Virus record (IMG/VR): IMGVR_UViG_2700989228_000060
Coordinates: 1 to 6,424 of that record
Direction: 5' to 3' (one strand)
From: a virus
DNA length: 6,424 nucleotides
The position numbers and the translations under genes were made by a program. Shown here in pieces: positions 1 through 6,424 of the stretch (position 1 is the stretch's first letter; every line of letters starts with the position of its first letter). The notes beneath the pieces are model-generated. The model had not been told where the DNA came from and did no database searches. It saw only the letters and a program-made list of their open reading frames with translations.

Positions 1-98
1 AATGAACTCATAATTAATAATTATTATTATTCGATGAAATCGGGATTAAATGTATCATTATATATTTTAGTCTTGTTAGCATCTTGTAAGTACTTGTA
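1..98. repeat. Terminal direct repeat, left copy, identical to 6327-6424. It marks a circular 6326-nt genome (assembly overlap). It contains the first 11 nt of VP1 (1-11) and the last 72 nt of the VP4 ORF including its stop codon (27-98).
   Basis: By-eye comparison base by base: the 98 nt starting aatgaactcataattaataatt and ending cttgtaagtacttgta occur at both window ends. The VP1 ATG at 6335-6337 corresponds to 9-11. Confidence 0.97.
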
Positions 99-1490
99 TT
101 GTTTCATACGGTTATTGATACCGAATTGTGAGTACTTTTGCTTAGATAATTCGACCTTTGTAGGGTCTAATTTATCATCAGTGTAAAACAAATCTTCGGC
201 AGTTTGTAAATCAATACCAAAACTTTCGCACACCCAAGACGCATTAGACCAAATAAAATCTTTATACCTTTCGAGCAGCTGCTCATAAAAGGTAGGATCT
301 ATACCCAACAAGTGGTGTATAGGTTGATGTAGGTTTTCTATGTATATCTTTTCATATTCTAATTGTTGTTTTAATAGGTAATAATCTTTGTTTTTATAAT
401 AGTTGTCCAATAGTCGGACATACTCACGAGTAGATACGCCAAATTCTTTACAGAAGCGAGCGCATTGTCTAGCACAGTAACAATCTATTGAGCTTTCGAA
501 GTGTTCTTTGACTTCTCTTTCTGGATGCTCTCTTTTATAACCATAAATTCGTAATTTTTCAACACTAGATAACGAGCGGTAGCCGCGACACTTTGGGAAA
601 AATCGCATTTCAAGCGCACGGGGAGGTTGAACATATACGGTAGATTGAGTGGCAATATCATATTGATAGTGTCCATAAGTTCCGTTAAAGGCATTTTTGA
701 GTAATTCCTTTTCATCATCCTCGCCATATCCGATAATAGGCGATTTACTTTGGACATGGAATGGACGGGTAAATTTAAGCTGTAGAAACGTTGGCAAACG
801 AGAATTGCCAGCAACGTATTTTGCAACGTACTGAGCGGCAGTGCTGTGGACGAGGCTTGGTTCTCGCACAGAACCATACGTCCAACTTTCACGGAGAAAT
901 TGCAAGATGTGCGCCATGATGGTTGGACTATCGAAGAATAAGATTGCATGATAATGCGGGCGGTAGGTTTTTCCGCCATACTCGGCAGCGAGGAAGTAAC
1001 GTAACGTTTGTGATTCATCTTTGATATTGTTTTTTTTGAATAAGTAAGCTATCTTTGCGCGTAAACGCTTGAAGAAACCTTGAACATCTTTAATATTGAA
1101 AGTCGGAATAATATACTTTCGATTATATTTATCATGATTGAGACGAATGTCAGCGGAGAAAGCGGGAATATCCAATATATCATAACAACCTTTTTCTATT
1201 GCAAATTGGCTAACATAGCGAAGATGTTCACCGTATTCATCTTGAATAGGTTCTAAAGAGTAATAGGGTATATGCTCGTTGTCATACGTCAGTGTAATGA
1301 ATAAGTTGTATCTATGCTTTTTGCACTCTAACTGTACACGATATGACCAATGTGAGCCTTTAGCGTTTAAGCACGCAGCACAATGTCTGCAAGGAGCATA
1401 AACAACCTCTTTTGTATAAGGGTTAATTATACGCTTTGGACTCAAACATCGGTCAATGTTAGGTAATTCGTCTACTTTATTAATAAACAT
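27..1490 (-). CDS. VP4: Replication initiation protein VP4, a rolling-circle HUH endonuclease of the Microviridae gene A / VP4 family
   Basis: 487-aa ORF. RCR motif 1 FITLTY lies at 1284-1301 and motif 2 HYHAILF (HUH) at 936-956. Motif 3 YVAKYV, with two catalytic Tyr in YxxKY spacing, lies at 813-830. There is an N-terminal Cys cluster (C15, then CRHCAAC at aa 34-40). All motifs were checked by back-translating the DNA. Confidence 0.93.
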   Translation of the reverse strand: MFINKVDELPNIDRCLSPKRIINPYTKEVVYAPCRHCAACLNAKGSHWSYRVQLECKKHRYNLFITLTYDNEHIPYYSLEPIQDEYGEHLRYVSQFAIEKGCYDILDIPAFSADIRLNHDKYNRKYIIPTFNIKDVQGFFKRLRAKIAYLFKKNNIKDESQTLRYFLAAEYGGKTYRPHYHAILFFDSPTIMAHILQFLRESWTYGSVREPSLVHSTAAQYVAKYVAGNSRLPTFLQLKFTRPFHVQSKSPIIGYGEDDEKELLKNAFNGTYGHYQYDIATQSTVYVQPPRALEMRFFPKCRGYRSLSSVEKLRIYGYKREHPEREVKEHFESSIDCYCARQCARFCKEFGVSTREYVRLLDNYYKNKDYYLLKQQLEYEKIYIENLHQPIHHLLGIDPTFYEQLLERYKDFIWSNASWVCESFGIDLQTAEDLFYTDDKLDPTKVELSKQKYSQFGINNRMKQYKYLQDANKTKIYNDTFNPDFIE

Positions 1491-1492
1491 AC

Positions 1493-1669
1493 CTAAGGAT
1501 TATTACGCTTTTTTGGATTGATAAACAAACCAAGTAAGAATGTAACGATATTGATAACTATCGTTGTTAGTGTACTAGCTTGTTCGGGGTCTAAACCGCC
1601 TTTACTAGCAGCGTAACTGTTAGCACCCATAGCTACAGCAGCTAATGCCATTAAAATTTTACTTTTCAT
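1493..1669 (-). CDS. Small membrane protein of 58 aa, a candidate holin-, pinholin- or spanin-like lysis accessory. It is not in the supplied ORF track, which lists nothing shorter than 62 aa.
   Basis: Hand translation gives MKSKILMALAAVAMGANSYAASKGGLDPEQASTLTTIVINIVTFLLGLFINPKKRNNP, then TAG at 1493-1495. It has an Ala/Gly-rich N-terminal hydrophobic segment and a C-terminal TM helix followed by a basic tail. It fills the gap between the peptidase and VP4 almost exactly, with the stop 2 nt before the VP4 ATG. Confidence 0.55.
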   Translation of the reverse strand: MKSKILMALAAVAMGANSYAASKGGLDPEQASTLTTIVINIVTFLLGLFINPKKRNNP

Positions 1670-1722
1670 AATTAAAGAATGAATTAAAAATTAATAATAT
1701 AATGAATAATTGAAGTAGTATA

Positions 1723-2052
1723 TCATTTAGGGTCATATTCTATATGGATATGGTCTTTTTCAAGAACTACGTCACAATCTCTAAGATTTGGATCAGAAGC
1801 AAGAGCATCATAAAAAAGATGTATTTCATCTTTTGGCTTATCGTTAATACGAACATCAAATGCTAAACCTTGATAATGTTTAGAGTTCTTCATATGTTTA
1901 CCGTCTGTTACAGAAGTAATAACCATTTTCTTAGGATTAAAGTACCTAAAATGAATATTAGAAGCATAAACAATTAAAGGGAACATAACAGGTTTTAAAC
2001 CCTCAATTTTAACACCAGATTTAAACTCAAATTGATTGATTAAATAGTACAT
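1723..2052 (-). CDS. Zinc peptidase of the M15 / LAS superfamily (D-Ala-D-Ala carboxypeptidase or L-Ala-D-Glu endopeptidase type), a probable endolysin
   Basis: 109-aa ORF. SKHYQGLAFD (aa 57-66, nt 1855-1884) matches the LAS zinc-site motif SxHxxGxAxD (H-x6-D). HIH (aa 101-103, nt 1744-1752) supplies the HxH third ligand. ITSVTDG occupies the position of the TSGYR-like motif in M15_3/M15_4-type domains. There is no signal peptide and no wall-binding domain. Confidence 0.85.
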   Translation of the reverse strand: MYYLINQFEFKSGVKIEGLKPVMFPLIVYASNIHFRYFNPKKMVITSVTDGKHMKNSKHYQGLAFDVRINDKPKDEIHLFYDALASDPNLRDCDVVLEKDHIHIEYDPK

Positions 2053-2416
2053 AATAAATAAATTTTAGTTACATGGTGCAAATATAATAAACTAGATAAT
2101 AACGATTATGAATATTACATTTTTTAACTATGTTTTAACATATAAGCAATAAAATCGGTTTTCTGTCAGTTTTTGTAATATATGCCAAGGGGAGACACAA
2201 CTTCGATAAGGTTTGAAGAAGTTGCACTTCGTGAAAACTGATTAATAATTTACATCATAAGTATAAATAATTGACATTTAAACACTTCTTCGAAGTAGAG
2301 CGGTATATTTTTAACGCAACAGAGTTGCGATTGCGTTTCCTCCTTTCATCAGGGCTCCAAACTAGTAAAAAGATTTTCCTTTTATGACGTTGCACTAAGC
2401 TTGGATATACAAGGAT
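2053..2416 (-). other. Large noncoding region of 364 nt, the only long gap in the genome. It is the candidate site of the promoter(s) and of the replication or complementary-strand origin.
   Basis: The longest ORFs found in the frames translated by hand, on either strand, are about 11-19 codons. The region is dense in hairpins and short repeats (see findings). It lies between the terminator at 2417-2443 and the first gene of the unidirectional gene array. Confidence 0.6.
2079..2086 (-). promoter_or_regulatory. Bacteroidota-type -7 promoter element TAnnTTTG (TATATTTG on the minus strand) upstream of the peptidase gene
   Basis: Plus-strand caaatata at 2079-2086 is TATATTTG on the minus strand, 26 nt upstream of the peptidase ATG (2052). 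No clean -33 TTTG was seen at the expected spacing. Confidence 0.3.
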
Positions 2417-2443
2417 AAAAAAAGCACCTACCGAAGTAAGTGC
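2417..2443 (-). terminator. Rho-independent terminator on the coding strand, with a UUCG tetraloop
   Basis: The minus-strand RNA reads GCACUUAC-UUCG-GUAGGUGC, an 8-bp stem with one G-U pair. Seven U residues follow directly (plus-strand A7 at 2417-2423). The stem starts 6 nt after the stop of the 40-aa ORF. Confidence 0.75.
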
Positions 2444-2449
2444 CTTTTA

Positions 2450-2572
2450 CTAGGAGAATAAGAAAGCAATAATAAAACATATTAAAGCTAATACATACTT
2501 AAATAATAATAAAGCAATAATAACATACAAAAATATACGTAATACTTTATACAACTTTTGTTTTTCGTTCAT
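2450..2572 (-). CDS. Hydrophobic micro-ORF of 40 aa, a putative small membrane protein. It is not in the supplied ORF track.
   Basis: Hand translation gives MNEKQKLYKVLRIFLYVIIALLLFKYVLALICFIIAFLFS, then TAG at 2450-2452. It has a polar, basic N-terminus followed by about 28 hydrophobic residues. It sits between the VP2 stop and the terminator. AT-rich sequence can produce such ORFs by chance. Confidence 0.4.
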   Translation of the reverse strand: MNEKQKLYKVLRIFLYVIIALLLFKYVLALICFIIAFLFS

Positions 2573-2590
2573 ATAATGTTATTTTTTGCA

Positions 2591-2598
2591 CAAATGTA
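2591..2598 (-). promoter_or_regulatory. Second TAnnTTTG-type motif (TACATTTG on the minus strand) between VP2 and the 40-aa ORF
   Basis: Plus-strand caaatgta at 2591-2598 lies 18 nt upstream of the micro-ORF ATG. Motif match only. Confidence 0.2.
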
Positions 2599-2604
2599 CA
2601 AATA

Positions 2605-3723
2605 CTATTTAACTTTACCCATTTTTTTAATCTTTTTAATATGTCCAACAGTTCTAACACCACCTTCAGCACCATTTATAATATCACCGCCACGGCGGAA
2701 CCACTTATCTGTATCGTAATCACCCAATCTTTTTAAAACATACTGATTATCAAGATAACCAGAATATACGTCTTGTTGTGTCTTTTGCAACGCTGCTTTA
2801 TATTGACCAACAATAAATTCCATAGATCTAGCCCTAGTAACATTATCCAAATGAATACCAGTTCTTTCCTCAACCTTTTTCAAAGTATCAGCAGCCTTGT
2901 TATTAATTTCGGCAAAACTAAGATTACGGTTAGTAATAGCATTCATACGGTTAGTATCTGAATTCTTAAGGTTTGCAATAGCATTCATGCGATTAGAATC
3001 CGCATTCTTATAACCTGTAATAGTTTCCATTGTCAGTTTTGCCATTTCAGCTTTAAACTGTTCTTCTGCATGTTTTTGTTTGAAGCCTAAATCAAATGAC
3101 GCTAAATCTTTTTGTATTTTTAATAAATCGGTTTCAGCTTGTGTCTTACCTACCAAAGCTTGTAACTGTGCAAGGTTCATATTATTAATATCTGGAAGTG
3201 TAAGATTATTAATATCTTGAGCCGTTTTCTCTGAATCAAGTTTACCTTTTTGACTTTTTTTTAACCCAATATCAGCTAAATAAACATCGTCTTTATGTAG
3301 ATTATCAATAGCAAGACCTTTTCTCTGTTCTTCTTTAATTTGAATATCAGCTTGCGCCTGCGACAAATCAATTAAATTACGAATAGAATTTTGAGACGCT
3401 GCTTGCAACGACTCACCAAATTGAGTAATAGGAGCAATTTGCGGAGCGTTAGGGGCTTGCATAGTAGATTGTTGACTACCACTTGAAATATTACCTAAAG
3501 CAAGATAAGGGTTAATACCAGCTTCTTCGTATCTAGCACGTTGAGCAGCGGGGGTATTATACGCATTTTGTTCACGTATCATATCACGATTAAACCGCAT
3601 TTGCTCATGAAACATATTCATTTGTGTTTCATTAGCGGAATTTTGTGCGAAAGCACCAATAGCACCACCAGCTAGAGAACCAACGGCAGAGATTAAAGAC
3701 GGAGCGATAGAAGAACTAGACAT
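2605..3723 (-). CDS. VP2: Minor capsid / DNA pilot protein VP2
   Basis: 372-aa ORF. It has a Gly/Ala/Ser-rich hydrophobic N-terminus (IAPSLISAVGSLAGGAIGAFA). The block that follows (NMFHEQMRFNRDMIREQNAYNTPAAQRARYEEAGINPYLALG) resembles what I remember of gokushovirus/alpavirus VP2 proteins. Downstream come a long Q/K/E/L-rich predicted coiled-coil region and a basic C-terminus. Confidence 0.85.
   Translation of the reverse strand: MSSSSIAPSLISAVGSLAGGAIGAFAQNSANETQMNMFHEQMRFNRDMIREQNAYNTPAAQRARYEEAGINPYLALGNISSGSQQSTMQAPNAPQIAPITQFGESLQAASQNSIRNLIDLSQAQADIQIKEEQRKGLAIDNLHKDDVYLADIGLKKSQKGKLDSEKTAQDINNLTLPDINNMNLAQLQALVGKTQAETDLLKIQKDLASFDLGFKQKHAEEQFKAEMAKLTMETITGYKNADSNRMNAIANLKNSDTNRMNAITNRNLSFAEINNKAADTLKKVEERTGIHLDNVTRARSMEFIVGQYKAALQKTQQDVYSGYLDNQYVLKRLGDYDTDKWFRRGGDIINGAEGGVRTVGHIKKIKKMGKVK
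2935..3010 (-). repeat. In-frame tandem duplication inside VP2, period 42 nt (14 aa)
   Basis: 2935-2968 and 2977-3010 match at 29 of 34 nt. They encode DSNRMNAIANLK and SDTNRMNAITNR. A partial third unit (acggttagta) occurs at 2926-2935. Confidence 0.8.
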
Positions 3724-3730
3724 ATAATTA

Positions 3731-3769
3731 AAAATTTAAAACCCTACCTAACAAGGCAGCTAGATAGGG
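3731..3769 (-). terminator. Terminator-like or attenuator hairpin between the VP3-like gene and VP2
   Basis: The minus-strand RNA reads CCCUAUCU-(12-nt loop)-AGGUAGGG, 8 bp with one G-U pair, followed by UUUUAAAUUUUU. The hairpin spans 3742-3769 and the U-rich tract 3731-3741. The large loop and interrupted U tract make it weaker than the 2417-2443 terminator. Confidence 0.4.
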
Positions 3770-3791
3770 CGAGTTAAACATATATATAAAA

Positions 3792-4253
3792 TTAAACTTG
3801 TGGTTCTGAAGTAGAAGTAGTAGAAATGTCAGAAGTATCGGGCAACGGTTCTGATTCTTCTTTCATTTCCTTTTCACTCAACAAAGCATCACGATACTCT
3901 TTAACATCCTCGAGATAACGATTAATCTCAACGGGGTCACTGATATACTTACTTGGTATCATCATCAATATATCATCATCACTTAAACCTTTGGTAGAAT
4001 TACGTGATTTAAGCTCTTGAAGATTAGATATAATAAGTTCTTTTTCGGAACGAGATACAAGAGGATTAAACAAGCGAGATAAATCACCGTCACGATGCCC
4101 AGTAACTGGGTTTATAGGTGAAAGAAGTTCTACACTTTCAGTTTCACATATTGGCATAGATGTAGGAACATTACCTACAAAATCGGGGGCAATATTAGAG
4201 GGACTATCATCCGCTACATATTGATTAAAAATAATACTTGAACGTAAATTCAT
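3792..4253 (-). CDS. Hypothetical acidic protein of 153 aa, possibly an internal scaffolding protein (VP3-like)
   Basis: The ORF is tightly packed, 11 nt after the VP1 stop. Its size and position among the structural genes fit a VP3-type scaffold. It has an acidic, Ser/Thr-rich C-terminal tail (EESEPLPDTSDISTTSTSEPQV). I recognise no diagnostic motif, so coding status is likely but the function is a guess. Confidence 0.6.
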   Translation of the reverse strand: MNLRSSIIFNQYVADDSPSNIAPDFVGNVPTSMPICETESVELLSPINPVTGHRDGDLSRLFNPLVSRSEKELIISNLQELKSRNSTKGLSDDDILMMIPSKYISDPVEINRYLEDVKEYRDALLSEKEMKEESEPLPDTSDISTTSTSEPQV

Positions 4254-4264
4254 AACTACATAAT

Positions 4265-6337
4265 TTAAAGATTCATACTACCAACAACAGACATAGGACG
4301 GACTGCCTTAACATCAAAGTAAGAGTTAATCATAAATTGGTCAGTCATTGTACGACCGTCATAATTGAAAGAGAATATAGGGTCTAATACTTTAGGGTCA
4401 ATCATAAAGTTACGCAAACTTAAGAAAGATTTTTGATTTTTGTCATCACCTTTATAAGTATAAGTATTCATACGTGGAGTAGTCCAAGCGCTCAACGTAC
4501 CAAAACTTTGGAACTCACCGAATACCAAGTCCCTACTATTCTTATATTCTGCATAACGTGAGGTATAACCTAAGATACCGTTATTAACATCGGTATTAGT
4601 TGTGAAGCACAAATCAGATTGTAAAATAGGTTGTAATCCAAGATTTTGAAACTCTGGTTGGAAGTAATCCATACGATCGAGTTTGCGGTTAAAGGGATTC
4701 ATAAACTCAGCGTTGTAATCTACTTGTGGGGCAATAGAATAGATACACATAATCAAGCCATGTTCTTTAACATCAAAGTTTATTTTACCACTATTCATAG
4801 AGCCAATACCTTTACCGAACATCTGACCTGTAACAGAGGGAGAAGAAGCCTTTGTAGTAGGGTCTACAGCCGTACCGTTAGCAGTACTTATAACTTCACT
4901 AATAGCTACTGTATTATCAAAACCACCTATAAACTGTGCGCAATCTCTACGACTTTCGGGTACTTTAAAGCCATAATGTGCTGCTATCTGACTAGAGTAA
5001 TCAAGACCGTTAGCACGGCGAGTAGCTTCAAGCATTTTTTCAAGGGCAAACGCTGCCTTAATGTCTGCAACAGAAAGATAATTACTAGTATCAGTATTTA
5101 CAACAACAGAAGTATCACCAGCACCACGCAATAAATCTGGTTCTTGAAAACCATTAGTAAAAGTAGGCAAATTAAATATGCCTTCAGTATACAACACACT
5201 AGGTAAAGCAGAAGTTAACCAATCTTTTTGCCAATAGCGATAACGAAGATTAAAGAGATTATAGACTTCATTATTATCCATTAAACCACCTTTATACATA
5301 TAATCTACATTGAAACAAGTAGGGTCTGCCTTTTCCCATTGCTGATTACGATAGAAGTCATTATATATACGTTGATAAGCTAGAGGACGGAAAGCACTAA
5401 CGTGATAAGATTTTAAAGTAGCTAGGTTTTTATTCTTTTCATCAGTAATAGGGAAATAAACATACTTATTAGAAATCTTTTTATCACGTGTATCATAGTA
5501 AGGTAATATCATACGACCGTCAGACGATACACCATATTCCATTAAGTTCAACAGACGGAAAGCACCATAAGTATAACTATAACCGTGTACATCTTTATTT
5601 TTATCTTTAGTAAAATCGAAAGGAACACTATCGGGTAACGCATGATAAGAAGAACCCCAGAACGTACCAGAGTGATGCGGTTTATTATTACCACTACCAA
5701 AATGAAAATTATGAGTAAAAGGATAATTCTCATCATTATCTATAGGATTATCTGAATGATGACCATCGTCAATAGGATGAGAAGTATCAGCATCAACAGA
5801 AGAACGAGTAGACGCAGCTAAAGGGGGTTGATTAGGATTAATTGGAGACGGTCCAGCGGTAGGAGCTTTTTCGTTAGAATAAGGAACTTCATAAGGGTCA
5901 GAACCAATATGACCTTTAAAACGAGAACCATCCTCTTTACCAATAGACGATAAAAAAGACAACAAGTCAAAGCTAGGTACACTATTAGGAACGTCACTAA
6001 AGGAAGATATATCACCTTTTAAATCTTTAGGGTCACGGAAAGAACGGTCACCATTGGTTACACCAGCAAAGAAGCGGTCAGAACTAGACCATAAAGCACG
6101 ATAGGGAACGAAGAAGAAGTGATAGTATTCCTTACAACGAGCGAAAGCAGCTGTATTCAGTGGTTGAGTCCTTACGAGGTCTTGTACTGAAATACTAAAA
6201 TGTTCGCCCGGATTAACTTCTTGTGTTAGAACCGGCAGTAATGCACCAGCGGGAGCGGAGAAGATACGGCGACTAGATAAGTCAAAACCGTTCCTAGATA
6301 GGGTAGGGTGGGGGGTAGGTAATTTGAATGAACTCAT
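4265..6337 (-). CDS. VP1: Major capsid protein VP1 (Microviridae F-protein family)
   Basis: 690-aa ORF. The N-terminal region NGFDLS...LLPV...NPGE...TQPLNTAAFARCKEYYHFFFVPYRALW resembles what I remember of conserved Microviridae VP1/F N-terminal blocks. The C-terminal beta-rich region ends in ...DVKAVRPMSV. The start codon lies inside the terminal repeat, which is consistent with circularity. Confidence 0.95.
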   Translation of the reverse strand: MSSFKLPTPHPTLSRNGFDLSSRRIFSAPAGALLPVLTQEVNPGEHFSISVQDLVRTQPLNTAAFARCKEYYHFFFVPYRALWSSSDRFFAGVTNGDRSFRDPKDLKGDISSFSDVPNSVPSFDLLSFLSSIGKEDGSRFKGHIGSDPYEVPYSNEKAPTAGPSPINPNQPPLAASTRSSVDADTSHPIDDGHHSDNPIDNDENYPFTHNFHFGSGNNKPHHSGTFWGSSYHALPDSVPFDFTKDKNKDVHGYSYTYGAFRLLNLMEYGVSSDGRMILPYYDTRDKKISNKYVYFPITDEKNKNLATLKSYHVSAFRPLAYQRIYNDFYRNQQWEKADPTCFNVDYMYKGGLMDNNEVYNLFNLRYRYWQKDWLTSALPSVLYTEGIFNLPTFTNGFQEPDLLRGAGDTSVVVNTDTSNYLSVADIKAAFALEKMLEATRRANGLDYSSQIAAHYGFKVPESRRDCAQFIGGFDNTVAISEVISTANGTAVDPTTKASSPSVTGQMFGKGIGSMNSGKINFDVKEHGLIMCIYSIAPQVDYNAEFMNPFNRKLDRMDYFQPEFQNLGLQPILQSDLCFTTNTDVNNGILGYTSRYAEYKNSRDLVFGEFQSFGTLSAWTTPRMNTYTYKGDDKNQKSFLSLRNFMIDPKVLDPIFSFNYDGRTMTDQFMINSYFDVKAVRPMSVVGSMNL

Positions 6338-6424
6338 AATTAATAATTATTATTATTCGATGAAATCGGGATTAAATGTATCATTATATATTTTAGTCTT
6401 GTTAGCATCTTGTAAGTACTTGTA
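6327..6424. repeat. Terminal direct repeat, right copy, identical to 1-98. Positions 6353-6424 are a redundant copy of the last 72 nt of the VP4 ORF including its stop codon.
   Basis: Same comparison as for 1-98. Confidence 0.97.

Follow-up and report, generated by a model that had tools for sequence, protein, structure and literature searches.

A Conserved Structured Element beside a dif-like Site in an Alpavirinae-like Microvirus: A Candidate Viral-Strand Origin

To our knowledge, replication origins in the Microviridae have been mapped only in phiX174-like coliphages, and the far more abundant microviruses of the gut, the oral cavity, and the vagina have none. In phiX174, protein A cuts the sequence CAACTTG|A at 4305/4306, within ...CCCCCAACTTGATATTAATAACAC..., and this origin needs no three-helix fold. 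The DNA analyzed here is IMG/VR record IMGVR_UViG_2700989228_000060, positions 1 to 6,424. The full 6,424-nucleotide (nt) stretch is referred to as the window, positions are window coordinates unless another genome or locus is named, and (-) denotes the minus strand. The window covers a circular microvirus genome in full, a 6326-nt circle closed by a 98-nt terminal repeat. Every gene is found on the minus strand, which from knowledge of the family we take to be the packaged strand as well, and the genome has a sole long gap, at 2053-2416 (364 nt). Within this gap lies a conserved, structured element of 92 nt, 2248-2157 (-). We propose that this element is the viral-strand origin of rolling-circle replication, with a nick after an invariant CTTG, between 2186 and 2185, and we put the probability of this reading at about one half.

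The comparison with the phiX174 viral-strand origin (ori+) shows both likeness and difference. Both phages belong to the same family, both sequences are located on the coding strand, and both Rep proteins contain the motif YVAKYV. VP4, the Rep of the window (1490-27 (-)), carries the rolling-circle motifs FITLTY, HYHAILF, and YVAKYV and matches the Pfam family REP_ORF2-G2P at 5e-14; its YVAKYV is the same as the two-tyrosine site of protein A, FYVAKYVNK. At the DNA level, CTTG comes after a run of C in both phages and is followed by an A+T-rich stretch of ~9 nt and by a conserved block opening with ACA. In the window, this arrangement reads CTCCCCTTG, then the 9-nt A+T-rich spacer, and then the block. 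In contrast, there is no significant similarity over 30 nt, the window element is intergenic whereas the phiX174 origin is inside the Rep gene, and the window element forms part of a three-helix fold in which one hairpin covaries.

Rolling-circle plasmids provide a second set of comparisons. Plasmids of the pC194/pUB110 type are nicked at CTTG|ATA, and pMV158 and pT181 present their nick sites on hairpins and have separate bind repeats. The element shares a CTTG nick candidate with the pC194 group and, as in these plasmid origins, a hairpin or cruciform would present an unpaired strand. One pMV158 study (PMC1851628) places the bind locus 84 bp from nic, and direct repeats likewise lie downstream of the nick candidate in the window. 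Unlike the plasmid origins, the window has its nick candidate in an internal loop beside a hairpin and not in an apical loop, its repeats are merely two 7-mers, and its Rep is of the microvirus type.

Conservation of the Element

The region 2079-2269 is the sole DNA of the window that blastn still detects in several diverged microviruses, and in OP549865 it is the one megablast match across the whole genome. When eight genomes were aligned on the coding strand, ~2262-2160 proved nearly invariant except for one stem in which both arms change. The blastn matches, together with scans for the pattern in IMG/VR, in metagenomes, and in GTDB genomes, placed the element at 54 loci in microvirus genomes and proviruses (49 distinct sequences), including one locus in Prevotella multiformis DSM 16608. 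Without exception, the element sits 400-700 nt past VP2 and on the coding strand. The covariance model of the element (R1) scores 91.8 bits in the window (E 3e-17) and 72-102 bits over the 54 loci. A search of 151 Prevotella-genus-group genomes recovered the element from the single provirus carrier and from no other, which indicates that it belongs to the phage and not to the host. A VP4-based search for related loci in viral contigs gave no confirmed relatives.

Divergent versions of the element occur in pig, cattle, and IMG/VR microviruses. These loci comprise L162, L165, L166, L169, L171, L173, and L174 from IMG/VR, L146 (MT135455, pig), L147 (MG945638, cattle blood), and L145 and L140 from human sources. 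Among them, a second, more divergent subfamily (subfamily B) reads ...CAGTTTTC-CCY-AAC-GG-hairpin-CCCTTG-TCCTATATAC-GAAAACTGACAC with the fold unchanged, so the architecture extends beyond the window's own clade; the collection scan that found this subfamily missed the main family.

Fold, Candidate Nick Site, and Competing Explanations

Members of the main family share one layout. The first half consists of (A/T)CAGTTTTCAC, 3-4 nt, GTG, a 7-bp arm, and a loop of 10-15 nt opening with TTYAAYC, and the second half consists of the matching arm, TG, a C-rich linker ending in CTTG, 9 nt, and ACAAAAACTGACAGAA. In the window, folding predicts a basal stem in which the 5′ arm TCAGTTTT (2241-2234 (-)) pairs with AAAACTGA (2173-2166 (-)). 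Above it stand a mini-hairpin, CAC-GAA-GTG (2233-2225 (-)), and an upper hairpin with a 7-bp CAACTTC/GAAGTTG stem around the 13-nt loop TTCAAACCTTATC (2224-2198 (-)). The 7-bp stem had already been singled out in an earlier note on this DNA, which was written from the sequence alone and treated the stem as one state of a switch (module a) with an alternative pairing across a 3-nt loop. Relatives keep the stem but not the alternative: the three closest genomes already carry AGCGT in place of GAAGT.

Evidence for the fold comes from changes that preserve pairing. The upper stem shows both-side changes at 7/7 pairs and is 100% paired over 50 distinct sequences. Its covariation score is 0.415 versus 0.098 in shuffles and at most 0.072 in slid registers, and RNAalifold recovers the stem independently. 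In the mini-hairpin, CAC and GTG are invariant and the 3-4-nt loop varies; compensatory variants are CCA..TGG in locus L044 and CCC-GAA-GGG in the pig virus MT135455. Both arms of the basal stem change in distant versions of the element, to CAGTA/TACTG in MG945638 and to an 8-bp CAGTTTTC/GAAAACTG stem in subfamily B. The divergent subfamilies have retained the fold through compensatory changes of this kind.

A covarying hairpin could also belong to a transcribed structured RNA, such as a small RNA or a leader. The element is also located 75-160 nt upstream of a conserved -7 promoter box, where it could act as a transcription-factor operator for the downstream promoter. We regard both of these roles as very doubtful. 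The upper stem has 0 G-T (G-U) pairs over 350 stem cells; an RNA helix would not usually lack them, and a DNA hairpin or cruciform therefore fits better than RNA. A strong terminator precedes the element and the sole conserved promoter box comes after it; given this position, the element is probably not transcribed. A scan of the gap with the Rfam 15 covariance models returned no match up to E = 10. The distance between the element and the promoter is variable, which speaks against an operator.

Among the pointers to a viral-strand origin are the CTTG and the sequence that follows it. CTTG is invariant in all 54 loci, is retained by the divergent subfamilies, is always on the coding strand, and is unpaired in the predicted fold; in the window it occupies 2189-2186 (-) within the unpaired C-rich linker. 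Next comes a spacer, GCATATATT in the window (2185-2177 (-)), that is variable in sequence and mostly A+T-rich and yet measures 9 nt in 47 of the 49 unique sequences, both exceptions being duplications. The spacer is followed by the invariant 17-mer ACAAAAACTGACAGAAA (2176-2160 (-)), a candidate protein-binding sequence that includes the 3′ arm of the basal stem. Sixteen of its bases, ACAAAAACTGACAGAA, are identical even where VP4 is only 37-44% identical to that of the window, and the final A varies. The divergent subfamilies retain CTTG, then ~9-10 nt, and then AAAACTGACA, and the rest of the invariant block is not kept.

The two exceptional spacers are tandem duplications of 10 nt and 8 nt in two independent proviruses, and in each the left edge falls exactly after CTTG. 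Locus L087 (2169-2271) has two copies of ACCTATATTA and locus L091 (10627-10725) has two copies of ACCAATAT, and neither boundary can be shifted. Duplications anchored at CTTG are the footprint expected from imprecise termination or repair at a nick, and a nick at CTTG had been proposed before the duplications came to light.

These features can be combined into a proposed mechanism. In single-stranded or supercoiled DNA, the element would fold into the basal stem, the 3-bp mini-hairpin, and the 7-bp upper hairpin, and this fold would expose an unpaired C-rich strand ending in CTTG, followed by the 9-nt spacer and ACAAAAACTGACAGAA. VP4, as an HUH Rep with a two-tyrosine YVAKYV of the phiX174 type, would bind the invariant block and the fold, nick after CTTG, and rejoin the strand there at the end of each round.

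A number of points weigh against assigning the viral-strand origin to this element, beginning with the precedent, since the mapped microvirus origins that we know of are all from phiX174-like phages. The 30-nt phiX174 origin has no significant match in the window, with 15/30 at the proposed register and 39 genome positions scoring higher; other members of the family score 12/30, and scores of 17-20 arise in shuffled genomes. What resemblance there is consists of CTTG and the spacing only, and the base after CTTG is G, T, or A and not constantly A. Both collection searches behind most of the loci required part of the invariant block: the first required the whole 16-mer, and the second required AAAAACTGACAG and TTTCAC...GTG. 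Some of the invariance was therefore imposed by the searching, although neither search required CTTG or the 9-nt spacing. For the 17-mer, the blastn-found occurrences outside the window's own lineage amount to 6 loci (L001-L006). The basal stem is invariant in the main family, which places it beyond the reach of a covariation test there. The single-sequence fold of the element is thermodynamically ordinary (z = -1.3). Folding was among the checks proposed in the earlier note, and single-sequence DNA folding of either half of the gap gave ordinary energies on both strands (z -1.3 to +0.4), so that folding energy by itself is uninformative. Finally, the duplications number two and are in the spacer, the part likeliest to tolerate insertions, and a conserved host enzyme could equally well account for the invariance seen in diverged phages. 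Separately from the proposed register, the best ungapped match to the phiX174 origin in the genome is at 99-128 (-), inside VP4; its score of 20/30 is within the shuffle range of 17-20, and we attribute it to chance.

The host-enzyme option, the two duplications, the lack of a phiX174-origin match, and the search-imposed invariance are the reasons for retaining a complementary-strand (minus) origin as the main rival, even though we consider it unlikely. For a minus origin, the hairpins on the incoming single-stranded genome would stay free of single-stranded DNA-binding protein and would recruit host primase, RNA polymerase, or a PriA-type primosome, and the invariant ACTGACAG and CAGTTTTCAC blocks would be the recognition and start signals of the host enzyme. 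The element is similar to the complementary-strand origins G4 oric, M13 ori-, the phiX174 PriA site, and ssoA in having several viral-strand hairpins, a noncoding location, and conserved unpaired motifs, and its stems covary freely. A conserved Bacteroidales host enzyme would easily explain extreme invariance in the face of 35-44% Rep identity, and E. coli-type primases start at the trinucleotide CTG, which is present in the element. The precedent of the phiX174 group is the opposite, however, with a conserved plus origin and a minus origin that differs among phages, and in the window the adjoining variable, structured spacer could fill the minus-origin role. Duplications anchored at CTTG are not expected from a priming site and point instead to a nick, and the absence of any G-T pair suggests a role for both strands, as in a cruciform. 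The CS-6 motif of ssoA-type origins (TAGCGW) is absent from both strands of 2053-2416, and the gap also differs from known complementary-strand origins in having no promoter-like duplex.

The Adjoining Attachment Site, Repeats, and Promoter

The viral-strand origin candidate is located next to a second site of interest. Attachment sites resembling dif are already known for exactly this phage group: Krupovic and Forterre reported them in 2011 (PMC3091885) and suggested that the phages integrate by means of XerC/D. The window resembles their BMV/Alpavirinae proviruses in phage group, gene order, Prevotella hosts, and lack of an integrase gene (none of the seven open reading frame (ORF) products of the window matched an integrase or recombinase family). 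The proviruses are flanked by imperfect direct repeats with a CATAA-N6-TTAT core, and the window site has the same core. That paper covers att sites only, with "hairpin" used 0 times and "origin" used twice in other senses, and does not describe the adjacent element. Searches of Alpavirinae and gokushovirus papers turned up no description of these motifs or of such an origin or hairpin, and the conserved origin-like element appears to be undescribed so far.

The site in the window, AATATTCATAA-TCGTTA-TTATCTAGTTT (2116-2089 (-)), is 28 bp long and has an 11-6-11 layout with CATAA-N6-TTAT inner half-sites, as in the bacterial dif consensus. Its assignment as a candidate XerC/D attachment site (attP) is by alignment homology with the att core of relatives, in which the crossover itself can be seen. 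Many element loci belong to proviruses embedded in long bacterial contigs, where the order is VP4-VP1-VP3-VP2-element-host. Homology between the circular genome L053 and the proviruses L072, L114, L081, L075, and L098 stops at a core of ~24 nt, TATTTATC(A/T)TA.CTACCATTATCT; this core (4897-4921 in L053) recurs at the two ends of the proviruses and follows the element at a distance of 52 nt. In the P. multiformis provirus, attL and attR are 24-nt direct repeats 6069 nt apart. By analogy, host XerC/D would integrate the double-stranded form of the window phage into the host dif through 2116-2089. A search of the 151 Prevotella-genus-group genomes with a dif-like pattern gave matches in 117 with much noise in controls, and a single chromosomal dif was not discernible.

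Metagenome contigs L045, L065, L074, L076, L084, L092, L100, L103, L114, L072, and L089 end 120-380 nt past the element, at the att site or shortly beyond it. Such ends are expected where assemblies branch between integrated and free forms or between insertion sites.

Two direct GTTAAAA repeats (2139-2133 and 2128-2122 (-); 11 nt from start to start) lie between the element and the dif-like site, and a pair of this kind (GTTAAAG/A, 11-nt spacing) occupies the same position throughout the family. Neither these repeats nor the dif-like site nor the invariant CTTG-N9-ACAAAAACTGACAGAA arrangement had been recognized in the earlier note. The position of the element invites the question of whether the element, alone or together with the repeats, assists or regulates Xer integration/excision or the lysis-lysogeny choice, in the manner of the sequences beside the XerC arm of plasmid cer/psi or the folded attP of CTXphi. 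In every genome, the element flanks the XerC arm of the dif-like core at a distance of 25-85 nt, and in proviruses it is beside attR; Prevotella proviruses also show extra dif-like sequences near one end (PMC3091885). This role nevertheless seems quite improbable to us. An element-core distance that varies so widely (~25-85 nt) is poorly suited to a synaptic complex of fixed geometry, no dif-like sequence is present in the element, and the CTTG, the fixed spacer, and the duplications would all be left unexplained. An inverted second dif-like site at 2250-2275, in the style of CTXphi, was also considered and rejected, as the match is weak and its CATAA is lost even in the closest relatives.

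If the element is a viral-strand origin, its neighborhood raises a broader and, in our estimate, improbable idea. Prevotella-type (Alpavirinae-like) microviruses might combine replication and lysogeny in one cassette: the CTTG nick site would occupy the internal loop of a three-helix DNA junction, with the Xer site a few dozen bases away, and the fold might also steer integration/excision or the choice between rolling-circle replication and integration. A shared cassette, if true, would represent a new origin architecture in the Microviridae, intergenic and structure-dependent, in contrast to the linear 30-nt origin in phiX174 gene A. The present analysis supplies a precise candidate: an element of 92 nt, a nick predicted to fall after CTTG, and a covariance model matching >60 genomes and proviruses. 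Such a candidate would enable in vitro nicking assays and the design of minimal replicons and shuttle vectors for genetically intractable Prevotella and Bacteroidales, and the annotation of these phages and the calling of their prophage boundaries would benefit. The public relatives of the window come from human vaginal, salivary, and nasopharyngeal samples, and the window phage has the dif-like site expected of a temperate microvirus, which matters for reading human mucosal virome data.

Just past the dif-like site is a Bacteroidota-type -7 box, TATATTTG (TAnnTTTG; 2086-2079 (-)), 27 nt upstream of the ATG of the 109-amino-acid ORF. The form TAT[AC]TTTG is conserved in 8/8 aligned genomes, and a -7-like box follows attL in several relatives. 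The TAnnTTTG motif showed no genome-wide enrichment, and the window sequence has no -33 TTTG ~19-21 nt upstream of the -7 box. A promoter at this position could transcribe the whole one-strand gene array to the terminators at 3770-3741 and 2448-2417. The sites returned by a sigma-70 promoter scan, whose consensus is not used by this type of host, were no more numerous than in shuffles and were set aside. On the other side of the gap, an intrinsic terminator with a 13-pair stem and a T-run (2448-2417 (-)) closes the VP1-VP3-VP2-40aa block. It lies just outside 2053-2416, the span considered in the earlier note, and the sister clade has a hairpin and T-run of different sequence at the same position. 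Two further TAnnTTTG boxes were noted nearby: TACATTTG at 2591-2598 (-), 19 nt upstream of the start of the 40-amino-acid ORF and a possible internal promoter, and TATTTTTG at 2528-2535 (-), within that ORF.

The Variable Spacer and the Gene Setting

The stretch between the terminator and the element is different in character. This lineage-specific spacer (2416-2249 (-)) holds a second copy of GTTGCACT, the motif AAAGGAGGAAA (2346-2336), and two hairpin modules named b and c in the earlier note. In the eight-genome alignment, the sequence from 2416 to ~2265 is common to the three closest genomes only, and the sister clade (OP549864; L001-L004) has unrelated sequence there, including a GGGGGC-ATAATA-GCCCCC hairpin. 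This replacement makes the spacer look like an exchangeable module.

Within the spacer, the hairpin CGCAAC-TCT-GTTGCG and its flanks (2334-2307 (-)) form the core of module b, GCAATCGCAACTCTGTTGCGTTAAAAAT, which matches 13 of 401 Prevotella-genus-group genomes at 93-96% identity over 24-28 nt. The pattern TCGCAAC-NNN-GTTGCG is present in 6-14 copies in some of those genomes and in 0 copies in controls, and the host copies (L175-L179) are intergenic and beside GC-rich hairpins. The repeat matches no Rfam family. Judged by these sequence matches, the spacer includes host-derived sequence, one copy of a hairpin repeat that is dispersed among Prevotella intergenic regions, and the presence of this copy in the phage supports Prevotella as the host genus. 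The repeat may be a terminator-like site, a host-factor site, or a minus origin.

The earlier note had viewed the whole gap as an origin and promoter hub in which two three-segment hairpin switches and ACTTCG iterons would regulate the use of the origin or promoter. All of its motifs lie where it had placed them, and control elements do sit in the region: the origin candidate and the -7 box are both conserved. The observation is thus partly confirmed, and the interpretation is partly supported in a form other than the one proposed. The features to which the note gave most weight, namely the remaining hairpins, the repeated 8-mer, and the hexamers, fall in the lineage-specific spacer. Comparison with relatives, also suggested in the note, turned up the covarying upper stem and no conservation of the alternative hairpins or iterons. 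For module b, mutually exclusive pairings had been described between CGCAAC (2315-2320) and GTTGCG (2324-2329) and between AACGCAA (2313-2319) and TTGCGTT (2331-2337); neither these nor the module c hairpin, ACTTC-TTC-GAAGT at 2284-2296, are conserved, and both modules are in the spacer that the sister clade has replaced. The twofold occurrence of GTTGCACT is unusual by composition (0.14 expected; 1 of 200 shuffles reaches 2), but the second copy falls in the replaced spacer. The ACTTCG/CGAAGT hexamer occurs 5 times genome-wide against 2.1 expected, a count reached by 15 of 200 shuffles; the excess is not significant, and the hexamers are not conserved. Although mutually exclusive pairings do exist in this one sequence, a regulatory switch of the kind proposed is extremely improbable: the three closest relatives lack the alternative arm of module a, module b has as its core a host repeat copy in a spacer absent from the sister clade, and two of the hexamer copies are simply arms of a freely covarying stem.

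The gap itself offers little sign of coding. No ORF in it has a family match, and a tRNA scan of the gap returned nothing. A 46-amino-acid ORF at 2395-2255 was rejected as a gene for want of family matches, and a 30-amino-acid ORF at 2227-2135 was rejected because its frame is broken by a 1-nt indel in close relatives. The results support the view that the 364-nt gap is the cis-acting control region of the phage.

The genes around the gap follow one another on the minus strand. VP1 (6337-4265 (-)) is followed by a 153-amino-acid ORF, VP2 (3723-2605 (-)), and a 40-amino-acid membrane ORF (2572-2450 (-)) directly before the gap. The first gene past the gap is the 109-amino-acid ORF (2052-1723 (-)), with its ATG at 2052, and a 58-amino-acid holin-like ORF lies between it and VP4. 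A second strong terminator-like hairpin is present at 3770-3741 (-), between the 153-amino-acid ORF and VP2.

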